Shown one piece after another: positions 4,356-51,512 of a stretch of DNA of 64,000 nt. The notes beneath the pieces were generated by a model. That model had not been told where the DNA came from and did not search any database. It worked only from the letters and a program-made list of their open reading frames with translations. The position numbers and the translations under genes are program-made. This DNA is from an uncultured Actinomycetes bacterium (GTDB taxonomy: Bacteria > Actinomycetota > Thermoleophilia > Gaiellales > Gaiellaceae). The stretch covers positions 78,290-142,289 of the forward strand of contig CAVSAK010000009.1 in the NCBI GenBank assembly GCA_963725965.1. Direction: 5' to 3'. Every line of letters starts with the position of its first letter. The first letter of the stretch is position 1.

Positions 4356-4663
4356 ACGACTGCCTCTTCTGCAAGCTCTACCACGAGGGCGACCTTGTCG
4401 CAGCGACGGACGGTTTCGTCGCGATCCGCGACATCAACCCGCAGGCGCCGGTGCATCTGCTCGTGATCCCCGAGCGCCATGTCAACTCGTTCCGCGAGAT
4501 CGGCGAGTTCACGGCCGACGAGGACAAGCGGATGCTCGAGTTCGTGGCCGAGGTCGCTGCACGCGGGGGGTTGACGGATTACCGTGTCGAGGTCAACGTG
4601 GGCCCAAGCGCGGGCCAGACGATTTTCCATCTGCACTGGCACATCAAAGGCGGCTGGGCTTGA
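4352..4663 (+). CDS. HIT (histidine triad) family protein
   Basis: GTG 4352 lies in a GTGA overlap with the mtaB stop. The sequence reads CLFCKL...NPQAPVHLLVIPERH...IFHLHWHIKGG (HxHxHxx motif). Confidence 0.85.
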   Translation: MNDCLFCKLYHEGDLVAATDGFVAIRDINPQAPVHLLVIPERHVNSFREIGEFTADEDKRMLEFVAEVAARGGLTDYRVEVNVGPSAGQTIFHLHWHIKGGWA

Positions 4664-4730
4664 GCCGTAGGCTCGACGGAGTCGAACAAGGAGTGGAGGC
4701 GGCGGCTTTGCCGGCGCCGGAGCGGAAATG
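4661..4730 (+). repeat. 70-nt intergenic element, copy A (TGA of the HIT gene to ATG of the yqeY-like gene)
   Basis: Near-identical to 50780-50849 (+) and to the reverse complement of 25573-25642. Contains a GC hairpin at 4698-4718 and GGAG five nt before the ATG. Confidence 0.85.
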
Positions 4731-24790: not shown

Positions 24791-25575
24791 CCGAGCTCGG
24801 CGAGCAGCGGGCCCGCCTCCGCCTCGACGTCGGCGATCTGCTCCGGCGTCAGCTCCCGGTGCCAGCGTCCGATCGAGGAGTCGCGGAAACGGTCGAGCGC
24901 TCGATGCGTCGAGGTCACGTTCGAGCCGAGAAACTCCACGAGCCGGTCCGCCACGCTCGCGAGCCCCTCGTAGCGAATCTCGAGCAGGCGATCGCCGGCG
25001 TCCGCGGCTCGCACCGCCTCGACGTAGCGCCGCCACGCCCACGCGCACCGGCGGGCGTTGCTCACCTCCGAGAACTCGTCGCGGCGCTCGGGCTCGACCC
25101 AGAAGCGAGGCTCGGACCCGTACGGGAGTCGCGCGTCGTCCTGCCCGGCGTGATCCGCGTTCAGCCAGCCGCGTTCGAGGAGTGAGCAGACGACGTCGCG
25201 GCCGTCCCGCAGCACGTGCACCGCGAGCGCCTCGGGATACGCCTCGAGGGCCGCGTCGAGGACGTGCGCCGTCTCGGGAGTCTGCTCCACGCCGCGGAGT
25301 CCCCAGGCCAGACCGAGACGCCGGATGCGCTCGAGGATCCTCCGGAGGTCTTCCGCTGAGGGGTCAAGCGGCAGCGCCGCCTTCCACGGCGTGACCTCAC
25401 CGAAGTCGACGAAGCCCGGCAGGCCGCCGATCGCGCGGCCGACGAACGTCGTCCCCGAGCGCGGGCAGCCGACGACGAAGACGAGGCGCTCCTCGCGTCC
25501 GAGCCTCGGCCGCTGCACCAGTGCGCGCTCCGCCACCCGAGCGCCTGCGGTGGCGTAGTCGAGCAACGCGCTCAC
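24781..25575 (-). CDS. Sulfotransferase family protein
   Basis: 5'-PSB-like P-loop FVVGCPRSGTTFVGR, and later VLRDGRDVVCS. GTG 25575 is chosen as the start because it occupies the start-codon position of the 70-nt element; the track start TTG 25596 lies inside the repeat. Confidence 0.75.
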   Translation of the reverse strand: MSALLDYATAGARVAERALVQRPRLGREERLVFVVGCPRSGTTFVGRAIGGLPGFVDFGEVTPWKAALPLDPSAEDLRRILERIRRLGLAWGLRGVEQTPETAHVLDAALEAYPEALAVHVLRDGRDVVCSLLERGWLNADHAGQDDARLPYGSEPRFWVEPERRDEFSEVSNARRCAWAWRRYVEAVRAADAGDRLLEIRYEGLASVADRLVEFLGSNVTSTHRALDRFRDSSIGRWHRELTPEQIADVEAEAGPLLAELGYS

Positions 25576-25642
25576 TTCCCGCTCCGGCGCCGGCAAGGCC
25601 GCCGCCTCCGCTTCTGGGTGAGCTCCGTCGAGCCTACGCTCA
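25573..25642 (-). repeat. 70-nt intergenic element, copy C (TGA of the hypothetical gene to GTG of the sulfotransferase gene)
   Basis: Reverse complement: TGAGCGTAGGCTCGACGGAGCTCACCCAGAAGCGGAGGCGGCGGCCTTGCCGGCGCCGGAGCGGGAAGTG. It aligns along its full length with copies A and B. Confidence 0.85.
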
Positions 25643-31867: not shown

Positions 31868-34318
31868 CTACTTGCCGACCTTCAGCGCGACCTTCGAGCC
31901 CTTCGTCAGGTGCTTGCCGGGCTTGGGGCTCTGGGAGATCACGTGACCCTTGTTCTTCTTCTTCGACTTGACCTTCGTGATCTTGCCGACACCGCAGTGA
32001 TGGCCCTTGATCGCCCGCTTGGCCGCGGCGAGCGTCTTGGCCTTCACCTTCGGCACGATGCACTTCGTAACGAGCGGCGGCGGGGGCGAGAAGAAGAAGC
32101 TGGCGGTGACCGTGGTGTCGGTGTTCAGCGTGATGACGCAGGTGCCGGTACCGGAGCAGCCGCCGCCCGACCAGCCCAAGAAGCCGGTGCCGGTTGCAGT
32201 CGCTGTGAGCGTGACCTGCGTCCCGGCGCTGAACGCGTGGGAGCAGGTCGACCCGCAATCGATCCCGGCCGGACTGCTCGTGACGCTGCCCCTCGGGCCA
32301 AGTAGTGAGACCGACAAAGTTCGAGTCAGCCCGGGCGTACCGAAGATCGCGTTGACGGTTGTGTCGGCGCTCAGCGTCACCTTGCACGTGCCGGTGCCGG
32401 ATGCCGGTCCGCACCCGCCGCCCGACCATCCCTCGAAGACCGAGCCGGCGGCGGCAGTCGCACTCAGCGTCAGCTGGGTCCCGGAGTCGAACAAGCTCGA
32501 ACAGGTAGAGCCACAGTCGATTCCGGCCGGACTACTCGTCACCGTGCCGGTTCCCGGCCCACCCGTCGTCACCGTCAGTGTGTGCTTCGGAGGCTGCGTC
32601 GGCTGATCCCAGATCGCCTGGTCGCCGTCGTCGATCGGCGTGCTCCCTGTCCCGTTCAAGGCGACGATCTCCGCGCAATACCCGGCGCCGGCTGTAAGTC
32701 CAGTGACGTTGACCGAGACGTCGTGGAACGTGCCGTCGACTTCGGCGGACGGTAGCTGGGTGGGGGTGGTGCTGACGGCGGGTGAGCCCGAGGCGCCGTT
32801 GCTGGTACACCACTCCGAGCTGTCGAAGTCGTACTCGACCACGTAGCTCGTGCTCTGGCCGGCAGCGTTGACGTCGCCGTCGATCGTGGCTGTTGTGAGC
32901 CCGGTGGGGTTGGCGTCGAACGTGTCCACAAACGGTGCGCCCTGGGTCCAGGGGACCTGGCCTCCCTGGGCGTCCCCGTTGGCGTCGGTCGCGACCAGTT
33001 GGGCGCAGTAGGCGATGCCTTCGGTCAGCCCGGTCAGGTCGACGGAGACGAAGTCGTCGTCGGGGATCGGGTCGGTGCCCGCGATCGTCTGCGGCGAGCC
33101 GGACGTGCCGCCGCTCGTGCACCAGTCGGAGGTCGCGAGGTCGTACTCCGCGGCATATGTCGTGGCCTCGCCGTGAGGATCGATCAGGCCCTCCACGGTC
33201 GCCGTGGTCGCTCCGGTCGAGTAGGTGTCGAATGTCAGAACGTCGGGCGTTTCCCCCTGTGTCCACGACAGTTGGGCGCCGTCGACTTCACCGTTGACGT
33301 TGGTCGCGATGAGCCGGGCGCAATAGTCGGAGGCTGCAGTAAGCCCAGTCAGGTCGACGGAGACGCCGTGGAAAACCTCGTCCGTAAATCCGAGATCTGT
33401 CGCGTCGGTCGCTTTCCCCGGCGAGCCGGAAGTGCCGCCGCTCGTGCACCACTCGGAGCTGGACAGGTCGTATTGCACGGCGTAGCTCGTCGTCTCGCCG
33501 TTCGGATTGACGACGCCGGTGACCGTCGCCGTCGAGCCTCCCGTCGGCGAGGCGGCCCCGGTCGTCGCCCCCGGCTTGTCCACGGTGAACCTCACGAAGG
33601 TGGTCCCGAACGCTTCCCCGCCGGCGCTGAAGGCTGCTGCTCGCGCGCAGTACCCGGCTCCGGTCTGCAGTTCGAACAGCTTGACCGAGACGTCGTGGAC
33701 GGTGTTGTCGGTGAAGCCGAGATCAGCGTTGTCTGAGATGTGCGGCGTCGGTCCCGATTCGCCGTCGCTTGTGCACCAGGTTGAGCTGGCGAGGCCGTAC
33801 GCAACGTCGTAGACCGTGTCGTTCCCCTCTGGATTGATCGCGACGTCTACCGTCGCCGACGCCGCCGAGGTTGCGAACCCGTCGAGCGTGTCGACCTCGG
33901 GCGGGTCCTGCTGCCACGTCACCTGCGGCCCGTCGCCTTCTCCGTCGCCGTTGGTCGCAATGAATCGCCCGCAGTACGTGGTGAACCGGGTCAGTCCGGT
34001 CAGGTTCACCCCGACCTCGATGGCAGAGTTGGACCCGAGTGGGGTGGGGCTCGTCGCGTTGTCCGGCGAACCCGACGTGCCACCGCTCGTGCACCACGTG
34101 GAGCTCTGGACGTCCCACTCGACCGCGTAGCTCGTCGTCGCGTCCAATTGGGGGTCGATGTCACCGGCGAATGTTGCCGTCGTGAACCCGGTTGCTTGGA
34201 CAGAAGTCTTCGTGACGACAGGTGCCGCAGCCGAGGCTGCGGCCGGCAGGCAAAGCGTCACGGCGATCCCGAGAAGGCCGACCAGGAAGAGTGGGGCGCG
34301 GCGCGGACGCATGGTCAT
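31868..34318 (-). CDS. Large secreted repeat protein: signal peptide, 5 Cys-bearing FN3-like repeats, 2 InlB-B-repeat-like modules, C-terminal PASTA-like domain
   Basis: Signal peptide MTMRPRRAPLFLVGLLGIAVTLCLPAAASAAA. Five ~105-aa repeats share Y.V.YD..SS.WCTS.G.SG...VSV.LTGLT...YCA...A.N. Two modules contain VTSSPAGIDCGSTCS...GWSGGGC..TGTC. The tail is CIVPKVKAKTLAAAKRAIKGHHCGVGKITKV...GHVISQSPKPGKHLTKGSKVALKVGK. Start alternatives are 34312 and 34369. Confidence 0.8.
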   Translation of the reverse strand: MTMRPRRAPLFLVGLLGIAVTLCLPAAASAAAPVVTKTSVQATGFTTATFAGDIDPQLDATTSYAVEWDVQSSTWCTSGGTSGSPDNATSPTPLGSNSAIEVGVNLTGLTRFTTYCGRFIATNGDGEGDGPQVTWQQDPPEVDTLDGFATSAASATVDVAINPEGNDTVYDVAYGLASSTWCTSDGESGPTPHISDNADLGFTDNTVHDVSVKLFELQTGAGYCARAAAFSAGGEAFGTTFVRFTVDKPGATTGAASPTGGSTATVTGVVNPNGETTSYAVQYDLSSSEWCTSGGTSGSPGKATDATDLGFTDEVFHGVSVDLTGLTAASDYCARLIATNVNGEVDGAQLSWTQGETPDVLTFDTYSTGATTATVEGLIDPHGEATTYAAEYDLATSDWCTSGGTSGSPQTIAGTDPIPDDDFVSVDLTGLTEGIAYCAQLVATDANGDAQGGQVPWTQGAPFVDTFDANPTGLTTATIDGDVNAAGQSTSYVVEYDFDSSEWCTSNGASGSPAVSTTPTQLPSAEVDGTFHDVSVNVTGLTAGAGYCAEIVALNGTGSTPIDDGDQAIWDQPTQPPKHTLTVTTGGPGTGTVTSSPAGIDCGSTCSSLFDSGTQLTLSATAAAGSVFEGWSGGGCGPASGTGTCKVTLSADTTVNAIFGTPGLTRTLSVSLLGPRGSVTSSPAGIDCGSTCSHAFSAGTQVTLTATATGTGFLGWSGGGCSGTGTCVITLNTDTTVTASFFFSPPPPLVTKCIVPKVKAKTLAAAKRAIKGHHCGVGKITKVKSKKKNKGHVISQSPKPGKHLTKGSKVALKVGK

Positions 34319-50080: not shown

Positions 50081-50290
50081 GTGCCGATCTACGAGTACGT
50101 CTGCATGGAGTGCGAGTCGCATTTCGAGGAGCTCGTCCGGGGCGAGCAGCAGGTCGCTTGTCCCGACTGCGCCGCGACGAACGTGTTGCGCCAGTTCTCC
50201 TCCTTCGCGGTGCACGGCGTCACGAAGCCGGTCGCGACCGGCGGCGGTGGCGGCGGCTGCTGCGGCGGATCCTGCGGGTGCGGGCACTGA
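50081..50290 (+). CDS. FmdB-family zinc-ribbon protein with a Gly/Cys-rich tail
   Basis: MPIYEYVCMECESHFE...VACPDCAA (CxxC...CxxC). The tail is GGGGGGCCGGSCGCGH. Confidence 0.8.
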   Translation: MPIYEYVCMECESHFEELVRGEQQVACPDCAATNVLRQFSSFAVHGVTKPVATGGGGGGCCGGSCGCGH

Positions 50291-50297
50291 GGCCTTC

Positions 50298-50768
50298 GTG
50301 CCCCGGGGGGACGAAGACGGCGAGCTGCTGACCAGCGCCGCCTACGAGAGCATCGAAACGGAGCTCGCAGAGCTCGAGGGCCCGAAGCGGAAGGAAGTGG
50401 TGCAGGCGATCGCGACGGCGCGTGCGCACGGCGACCTCTCGGAGAACTTCGAGTACCACGCGGCGAAGAACGAGCAGGGACTGCTCGAGGCGCGGATCCG
50501 GGTACTGCGTCACCGGCTCCAGCACGCGACGATCCTCGACGAGGAGGCTGCCGCGGCGAGCGGCGTCGTCACCGTCGGCTCGCGCGTGGAGCTCGAGCGC
50601 GACGACGGCGAGAAGCTCGAGATCGAGATCACGGGCGTCGGCGGCGTGTCTCCCGACTCGCCCGTGGGACGGGCACTACTGGGGAAGGTCCCGGGCGACG
50701 AGATCGAGGTCGAGGCGCCGCGCGGCCGGTGGCGGGCGCGCATCGTGTCCGTCGGGCGTGCCTCGTAG
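50298..50768 (+). CDS. greA: Transcription elongation factor GreA
   Basis: HGDLSENFEYHAAKNEQ and a C-terminal SPDSPVGRALLGKVPGDEIEV. Confidence 0.9.
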   Translation: MPRGDEDGELLTSAAYESIETELAELEGPKRKEVVQAIATARAHGDLSENFEYHAAKNEQGLLEARIRVLRHRLQHATILDEEAAAASGVVTVGSRVELERDDGEKLEIEITGVGGVSPDSPVGRALLGKVPGDEIEVEAPRGRWRARIVSVGRAS

Positions 50769-50779
50769 ACTTGGAGGCG

Positions 50780-50849
50780 TGAGCGTAGGCTTGACGGAGC
50801 TCAGCAAGGAGTGGAGGCGTCGGCTTTGCCGGCGCCGGAGCGGGAAATG
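50780..50849 (+). repeat. 70-nt intergenic element, copy B (ends at the ATG of the udg gene)
   Basis: TGAGCGTAGGCTTGACGGAGCTCAGCAAGGAGTGGAGGCGTCGGCTTTGCCGGCGCCGGAGCGGGAAATG. Here the initial TGA lies 11 nt after the greA TAG stop. Confidence 0.85.
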
Positions 50850-51512
50850 AGTGCGGTGCCGGTCGCTGTGGAGACGCTCGAGGAGTACGGGGCGGCGACC
50901 GCGAGCTGCACGCGATGCCGTCTCGCGCAAGGACGGACGCAGGTCGTCTTCGGAGCCGGGAACCCGCGCGCCGACCTGATGTTCGTCGGCGAGGCGCCCG
51001 GCTTCCACGAGGACAAGCAGGGCGTCCCGTTCGTCGGTCAGGCGGGGAAGCTGCTGGAGGGGCTGCTCGCAGGTGTCGATCTCCGCCGTGAGGACGTCTA
51101 CATCGCGAACGTGCTGAAGTGCCGGCCGCCGGGGAATCGCGACCCGCAGCCAGACGAGATCGAGGCGTGCGAGCCGCACCTCTTCCGCCAGATCGAGCTG
51201 ATCGAGCCGAAGGTGATCGCGACGCTCGGCAACTTTGCGACCAAGCTCCTCTCGGGCCGCCCACTCGGCATCACCCGCGTGCACGGCCAGGAGCAGGAGC
51301 TGACGATCGCCGGCCGGAGCGTCCTCCTCTATCCGCTTTACCACCCGGCCGCCGCGCTCTATACGCCGGCGATGCTCAAGGTGCTCGAAGCCGACTTCGC
51401 CCGCCTGCCCGGGCTGCTCGGTGCCGCCGAGCCCGCGCCGCTCGCAGCTCTTCCAGAGCCTGAGCCGGAGCCTGCGGTCGAGGCTCCCGCGGAACAGCTC
51501 GGACTCTTCTAG
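50847..51512 (+). CDS. udg: Uracil-DNA glycosylase, family 4
   Basis: [38 protein letters not shown] and YHPAAAL. ATG 50847 is preferred over GTG 50811, which lies inside the repeat. Confidence 0.88.

Follow-up and report, generated by a model that had tools for sequence, protein, structure and literature searches.

Immediately upstream of udg, the gene for a family-4 uracil-DNA glycosylase (UDG) in an uncultured bacterium of the Gaiellaceae, lies a short element that is probably a 68-nt insertion of a mobile junction repeat resembling the mycobacterial MIRUs, placed precisely at the start of the gene. The family to which this copy belongs can be described, on the strength of its sequences, as a small, non-autonomous and lineage-restricted interspersed repeat of uncultured soil Gaiellaceae, occurring mainly in one genus. 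It would work like a MIRU while being unrelated to MIRUs by detectable sequence. A literature search on repetitive elements of the Gaiellales found no paper and hence no description of the element.

Three members of the family, copies A, B and C, had been recognized by the first-pass annotation in the window, that is, the whole 64-kb stretch of DNA analysed here. Copies A and C are about 89% identical to copy B, the one at udg, in a repeat comparison within the window (Table 1). The genome from which the window derives (G000) comprises 2.69 Mb in 15 contigs, with 69% G+C.

Table 1. Coordinates of copy B and its neighbours, of further copies and their native junctions, and of tandem arrays (positions refer to the window unless a contig or locus is named)
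Feature	Position	Strand	Remarks
greA, longest ORF	50247..50768	+	Pfam GreA_GreB_N and GreA_GreB over 50328-50765; GC3 0.93
Flank 9-mer TGGAGGCGT	50772..50780	+	exact direct repeat of 50812-50820
5' direct repeat GTGAG	50779..50783	+	former udg start codon GTG plus AG; includes TGA 50780-50782
Mini-ORF, 23 codons	50779..50850	+	stop TGA 50848-50850 overlaps ATG 50847 (translation)
Hairpin P1	50780..50803	+	TGAGC 50780-50784 pairs with GCTCA 50799-50803; loop GTAGGCTTGACGGA, 14 nt, 50785-50798
Purine box AAGGAGTGGAGG (family consensus GGAGCGGAGG)	50806..50817	+	at least 90% conserved; holds GTG 50811
Hairpin P2	50816..50836	+	GGCGTCGGC, TTT loop, GCCGGCGCC; 9 bp, U-G 50820/50832; part of minimum-energy fold
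Shine-Dalgarno-like GGAG	50837..50840	+	6 nt 5' of ATG 50847; read from sequence; GGAGCGGG kept across family
3' direct repeat ATGAG, rebuilt udg start	50847..50851	+	empty/filled comparison
udg, family-4 uracil-DNA glycosylase, 221 aa	50847..51512	+	TIGR00758, Pfam UDG
Copy A	4661..4730 (approx.)	+	same family, 5' of YqeY-like gene
Copy C	25573..25642 (approx.)	-	same family, 5' of sulfotransferase gene; landed in GTGA stop/start overlap
Copy C, native junction	window 25642		GTGAGCGCG; empty in four relatives
Native junction	C4:146094		ATGAGCGAGG or GTGACCG
Native junction (ppa)	C4:66837		ATGAGCGGCG
Native junction	C3:17543		GTGAGGGCG
Native junction	C12:111695		GTGAGCCTC or GTGATG
Tandem array, three units	L025:1498-1712 (G028:C10)		
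Tandem array	G004:C27:343-485		68-nt period
Further tandem arrays	L113, L151, L170		

The greA-udg junction with and without the element

A udg orthologue is present in 38 of 41 genomes of the genus, and the greA-udg junction could be compared at 30 loci. It is free of the element at 26 of these, whereas G000, G012 and G009 each carry a single unit at an identical insertion point and G028 carries a composite. At the empty junctions the greA TAG is followed by a C-rich spacer of about 10 nt and then by RTGAGY, the native start being written GTGAGTGCC after CCC; the filled sites read GTGAG[CGTAGG...GGAAR]TGAG. Set against the empty site of G020, ACTCGCTCCC GTGAGTGCA, the junction of G012, which reads ACTCGCTCCC GTGAGCGTAGG...GGAAA GTGAGTGCC, contains a clean insertion flanked on either side by GTGAG. 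In G000, GTGAG starts at 50779 and ATGAG 68 nt further on, at 50847; the insert of copy B is accordingly 68 nt long (about 50779-50851), bounded by (R)TGAG at 50779-50783 and 50847-50851. From this comparison, the TGAG of copy B is a direct repeat, made or required by insertion, whose 5' copy doubles as the 5' arm of hairpin P1.

The first-pass annotation had ascribed the TGA that opens copy B to the element itself and not to the neighbouring gene, with the argument that greA had already ended. The greA stop is indeed the TAG at 50766-50768, and the TGA at 50780-50782 sits 11 nt past it. Two further observations uphold the attribution: the frame closed by this TGA has a GC3 of 0.55 against 0.93 for greA, and the empty junctions identify the target as the udg start GTGAGT. 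Because that start, and not a stop/start overlap, was the target, the leading TGA of copy B stops nothing.

It had also been proposed that the 11 nt before the element repeat one of its internal boxes. The repeat itself is real, an exact 9-mer (TGGAGGCGT) with just two occurrences in the window (50772-50780 and 50812-50820) against 0.68 expected, but it is not a property of the element, as it is absent from the filled udg junctions of G012 and G009. The spacer of the relatives reads ACTCGCYCCC at this position, those two filled junctions included; since their flanks match the empty sites, the 9-mer is a local change in G000, outside the element. The change creates a GGAGG 1 nt 5' of GTG 50779, a position apparently too near that codon for a normal Shine-Dalgarno role. 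It could conceivably have arisen through template switching or through a small GCCTCC inversion.

The same junctions bear on where udg begins. The choice of ATG 50847 over GTG 50811 is well supported: ATG or GTG followed by AGY stands at that position in 30 of 30 orthologues, and an ORF check places GTG 50811 inside the element, in frame with ATG 50847. It is extremely improbable that 50811-50846 is coding sequence and that UDG begins at GTG 50811 with a 12-residue N-terminal extension. That codon is the first possible start past the in-frame TAG at 50766 and is preceded by AAGGA, but the extension would lie within the 68-nt insertion that is missing from 26 of the 30 orthologous junctions. 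Nor is it conserved among the filled sites, the udg-site copies of G012 and G009 having no start codon at the equivalent of 50811. The sequence AAGGAG directly abuts GTG 50811, with zero spacing, and the family-4 profile gains nothing: the TIGR00758 score (203.9 bits against a cut-off of 125.3, with profile position 1 at residue 21 counted from ATG 50847) is unimproved by the additional 12 residues. GTG 50811 itself stems from a change of GGAGCGG to GGAGTGG in G000, such that the family box GGAGCGGAGG reads GGAGTGGAGG, likewise in copy A.

In G012 and G009 the greA TAG is in frame 81 nt 5' of the udg start and no ATG, GTG or TTG intervenes, so that the conserved codon is the sole possible start in these genomes. 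At the empty sites the greA TAG lies 13 nt from the udg start and out of frame, leaving the udg frame open back into greA; for this reason the start codon is argued from the RTG conserved at all 30 loci and from the filled junctions of G012 and G009. Under a longest-ORF rule udg is wrongly made to begin at GTG 50811, within a mobile insertion, and the same error is possible wherever the frame of the element joins that of the downstream gene. The copy at C3:17543 of G000 (L004:3001-3075) is an example: its unit is one base longer, and its mini-ORF continues in frame into an ABC-2 permease gene with no ATGA stop. Called by its longest ORF, that permease would gain 23 residues.

Monophyly of G000, G012 and G009, the singly filled genomes, is rejected in a tree of the 2.7-kb flanks (AU p = 2.7e-7), although these flanks may be non-orthologous in parts and a shorter alignment gave an unresolved tree. 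An uncommon 3' arm, GCTCAG, is present in each of the four udg-site copies and counts against independent insertions. These copies may go back to a single insertion with later precise loss between the direct repeats, to recombinational exchange or to repeated insertion. The composite at the udg junction of G028 (contig C4, L062) consists of two P1 modules, the first of the ATGAGC type and the second of the CCGGC type, followed by two P2-like hairpins; this arrangement suggests nested or partial re-insertion.

Distribution, gene context and insertion targets

The genome-wide census envisaged in the first-pass annotation returned 13 copies in G000, on which a profile search and a covariance model agree. 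Their bit scores (65-97, R1 model) are far beyond chance. The element is carried by 30 of 36 other genomes of the same genus, with 1-65 matches each (65 in G028, 36 in G009, 30 in G012), and the remaining six have none. In a family-level search at a very strict threshold, a second genus yielded at least one strong match. In 24 genomes from four other families of the order, no element was found. Those matches that bear titles come from metagenome-assembled genomes (MAGs) of Gaiellaceae, Thermoleophilia or Gaiellales, or from unclassified Actinomycetota or Actinomycetes MAGs. One exact match lies on a contig binned as Verrucomicrobiota (L137, JBLMYA010000042.1), which is probably mis-binned. Viral contigs gave no match to the element. 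Other repeats are present in the window as well: at 32769-34142 there are direct-repeat families of 90-128 nt, spaced about 312-327 nt, consistent with a repeated-domain protein.

Among 124 copies with enough flanking sequence, the downstream gene is co-oriented in 115 and both neighbours are co-oriented in 93; 43 copies have the downstream start codon at +67, and 12 have it at +70. Where the upstream gene is co-oriented, its stop is exactly the TGA of the element in 49 of 100 copies. The downstream genes are functionally unrelated and include udg, ppa, tgt, cysC, a nuoL-like gene, yqeY and genes for the beta subunit of a TPP enzyme, an ABC permease, a cupin and a sulfotransferase. G000 contains single copies only; relatives also have tandem arrays of two to three units, which repeat every 68-72 nt and are chained by RTGA (Table 1).

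Five further copies of G000 have clean empty sites in relatives, which together with udg makes six loci at which TGAG is doubled. The native junctions of all five are 4-nt RTGA stop/start overlaps (Table 1). The insertion target is (R)TGAG, the usual site is the RTGA stop/start overlap of two co-oriented genes, and the general filled form is R-TGAG-[CGTAGG...GGGAA(A)]-TGAG. After insertion, the 5' TGAG preserves the upstream stop, and the 3' TGAG remakes the downstream start together with the last base of the element, usually A. At several filled sites a native GTG has become ATG at the 3' copy, the G being retained in the 5' copy; in the 3' repeat, the A is probably that of the element and the TGAG the duplicated target. 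The duplication is missing at some copies, and for those with arms other than RTGAGC its signal is weak, marginally above the control.

Between genomes, copies at a shared site diverge by 6-12%; the figure for codon position 3 of the neighbouring gene is 17-33%. This low divergence, together with the almost invariant P1 loop and purine box, fits a structural constraint that serves either movement or harmless translation. It could also reflect gene conversion, or insertions that were recent or repeated. In G018 the same ppa locus with the element is found on two contigs (C22:3467-4331 and C29:8475-9339) at equal identity to the query, which suggests strain duplication or assembly redundancy. 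Strains of uncultured Gaiellaceae could be told apart by the copy number, which ranges from 0 to 65, and by the tandem arrays.

Two covarying hairpins, a mini-ORF and the question of movement

Members of the family share a common plan. The first half consists of (R)TGAGC, a loop GTAGGCTCGACGGA, GCTCA(Y) and the purine box GGAGCGGAGG; the second half is made up of P2 (GGCGCCGGC, loop, GCCGGCGCC), then GGAGCGGGAA and the start codon of the next gene. In copy B, G50779 and G50804 are unpaired at the base of P1. The reading of the variable stem position given by the first-pass annotation is correct: T50820 stands opposite G50832, which makes P2 a continuous 9-bp helix (50816-50824/50828-50836), where copies A and C have G opposite G. 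The family consensus at this position is C-G.

Structure was assessed on two alignments, one of the 13 copies of G000 (A1) and one of 112 copies from relatives (A2). Over P1 and P2, 94.2% of cells are paired in the 112 copies against 82.0% in shuffles, and double-change cells number 181 against 49.5 +/- 6.5. Fitting of the alignment to the model biases these values toward structure; slid-partner controls, with 28.8-51.7% of cells paired, and a hand count on raw hexamers are free of such fitting. P1 shows compensatory changes at five of its six pairs in the 112 copies, with arm pairs such as GTGAGC/GCTCAC, ATGAGC/GCTCAT, ACGTGC/GCACGT, ATGACC/GGTCAT and CGCGGC/GCCGCG, around a 14-nt loop in which every position is at least 90% conserved. 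In P2, 94.8% of cells are paired and five pairs have double changes. G-U pairs outnumber A-C pairs, with counts of 65 and 21 overall and of 54 and 4 in P2. Given this strand-specific wobble bias, the fold is kept on the sense strand, as would be expected of an mRNA or of one strand of DNA. The folding energy of single sequences is ordinary (z = -1.17 for copy B; range -0.1 to -1.2), and because of this unremarkable stability the case for structure rests on covariation.

A conserved, strand-specific fold raises the question of whether the element is a cis-regulatory RNA of the host, that is, a structured leader whose P1 loop binds protein or RNA to control downstream translation, with dispersal being secondary. 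Strong covariation, the G-U bias on the sense strand, the invariant 14-nt loop and purine box, a divergence two to three times below that of codon position 3 and a constant spacing to the start codon would all suit such a role. We nonetheless consider it unlikely. The downstream genes have no common function, species of a single genus carry anywhere from 0 to 65 copies, and an orthologous site may be occupied in one genome but empty in another. In addition, tandem arrays exist, one copy lies in frame within an ORF and no Rfam family matches. At the site of the element the best sub-threshold Rfam hits have E = 1.8 and 7.8, and the one match in the window that reaches its gathering score is a tRNA. 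Variable copy number, polymorphic sites, arrays, the copy within an ORF and the unrelated downstream genes together point towards what would be a mobile, largely selfish repeat.

How a gene such as udg would tolerate a mobile, largely selfish repeat at its start is suggested by the reading frame that the element carries. The old udg start, GTG 50779, now opens a mini-ORF of 23 codons whose TGA at 50848 overlaps ATG 50847 as ATGA. Among 55 evaluable copies (those with a 5' NTG and a called downstream start), this stop/start overlap is retained in 45. The mini-ORF has 23 codons in 37 of the 45, 24 in six and 25 in two; its length thus changes in whole codons. We infer, by analogy, a relay of ribosomes from greA through the mini-ORF to udg: ribosomes leaving greA would start the mini-ORF at GTG 50779, their passage would melt P1 and P2, and after stopping at ATGA they would re-initiate on udg, 6 nt past the GGAG borne by the element. 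Expression of udg would survive the insertion because ribosomes are relayed in this way. GTG 50779 is buried by P1, and initiation of the mini-ORF might be hindered for that reason. No promoter or intrinsic terminator was detectable in a scan of the element; a TTGACG in copy B that could be taken for a promoter -35 box is the product of a C-to-T loop change and has no -10 partner.

Among classical mobile elements, MITEs share with the element a target-site duplication (TGAG, at six loci). Terminal inverted repeats are absent: aligned by eye, the 5' end CGTAGGCTCGAC mismatches the reverse complement of the 3' end TTCCCGCTCCGG. No mobilizing gene was found, and a search of G000 for isolated P1 modules, or for a longer element from which the copies might derive, gave only chance matches with two mismatches. 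The invariant 14-nt loop of P1 is a candidate recognition site for a mobilizing or binding protein.

One enzyme to be considered is a RAYT (REP-associated tyrosine transposase), of the IS200/IS605 type, which would recognize GTAG and the adjoining palindrome of a REP-type element and be guided by the internal GCTCA to TGAG(C). Several features agree with this scheme: GTAG is followed directly and invariably by GCTC-GACG-GAGC, complementarity and covariation link the internal 3' arm to the duplicated target, the fold is specific to one strand, and Y1_Tnp matches occur in 36 of 41 genomes of the genus. The distribution of these matches speaks against it, since G012, with 30 copies and 91% completeness, has no Y1_Tnp match while genomes free of the element do have them, and seven Y1_Tnp genes have no copy within 1.5-3 kb. 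Moreover, copies are not arranged in inverted pairs, and 93% of them are co-oriented with the downstream gene. On balance, mobilization of the element by a RAYT seems very unlikely. A general link to RAYT/Y1 transposases was rejected as well, there being no correlation with copy number and no Y1 gene flanked by copies. Covariation backs the outer P1 helix and not the inner palindrome next to GTAG.

Another conceivable route is that base pairing selects the target. The internal arm GCUCA(Y) complements TGAG(C), and the element could then be inserted at start codons in a guide-programmed manner, moving through a sense-strand RNA or a single-stranded DNA intermediate, with a putative enzyme reading the invariant 14-nt loop. 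The arm pairs do covary across sub-families (GTGAGC/GCTCAC, ATGAGC/GCTCAT, ACGTGC/GCACGT, ATGACC/GGTCAT), and some copies of the GTGC type repeat the 5' arm at the 3' junction; even so, we rate guide-programmed insertion as quite improbable. If true, it could also explain the movement of MIRU-type repeats, whose mode has, to our knowledge, never been established. With six pairs of empty and filled sites, strong covariation and a strand-specific wobble, the Gaiellaceae element offers a useful system for studying the movement of such repeats.

Comparison with known repeat families

The closest functional counterparts are the MIRUs (mycobacterial interspersed repetitive units; Supply et al. 1997, as summarised in PMC12548453 and PMC3184786). 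These insert at start codons, contain an internal ORF coupled at -4 nt and are bounded by tetranucleotide direct repeats (PMC12548453; PMC3184786). A relay of ribosomes with re-initiation has been proposed for them as well. MIRUs and the Gaiellaceae element are both dispersed repeats in the range of 40-100 bp inside operons, between co-oriented genes, as the 13 copies in G000 and the 115 of 124 co-oriented copies attest. Both carry an internal mini-ORF coupled at -4 nt, in 45 of the 55 copies here, although copy B lacks the 5' overlap because the greA stop lies 11 nt earlier. Filled sites are flanked by 4-nt direct repeats, with RTGA at both ends and empty sites in relatives at six loci; GC-rich internal inverted repeats are a further shared trait, as are tandem arrays, found here in the relatives of G000.

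For a sequence comparison we used six units from an actinobacterial genus with genomes of 5-6.5 Mb, which we take to be MIRUs from their sequence pattern and their context; they have the design ATGA...ATGA or GTGA...GTGA, and one lies 5' of a regX3-like gene. A search with nhmmer, comparing the profile of the Gaiellaceae element with these six units, gave nothing at E <= 10. The host of the Gaiellaceae element belongs to another class, Thermoleophilia, and the element itself has 68 nt, two covarying hairpins, an invariant 14-nt loop and a P1 that takes the duplicated target as one of its arms. The MIRU design, a selfish repeat that sits in the stop/start junctions of operons and brings its own stop, ribosome-binding site, start and throw-away frame, is now shown in a deep-branching class of soil actinobacteria with unrelated sequence.

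Two other groups resemble the element in part. The REP2 repeats of Neisseria and certain plasmid repeats of Borrelia stand directly 5' of genes and supply a ribosome-binding site, an ATG, two internal stem-loops and a promoter (PMC3184786). Position, ribosome-binding site, ATG and the two stem-loops are alike, whereas the Gaiellaceae element has no detectable promoter, and a mini-ORF bridging stop and start is not described for the Neisseria and Borrelia repeats. With the REP/BIME elements and their RAYTs it shares a GTAG beside a short GC-rich hairpin and structure on one strand; it differs in the absence of a RAYT link and of inverted pairs, in its strict co-orientation with genes and in its built-in start and stop codons.

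The palindromic elements of Rickettsia sit in frame inside protein-coding genes. The Gaiellaceae element is otherwise found at gene junctions, yet one member of the family in G000, at C3:354857 (L010:3001-3066), is a 66-nt in-frame copy within a long ORF for an AddA/UvrD-like helicase with a GC3 of 0.89. The corresponding site measures 9 nt in three relatives and holds an unrelated 75-nt segment in G012, and it appears to be a variable protein linker.
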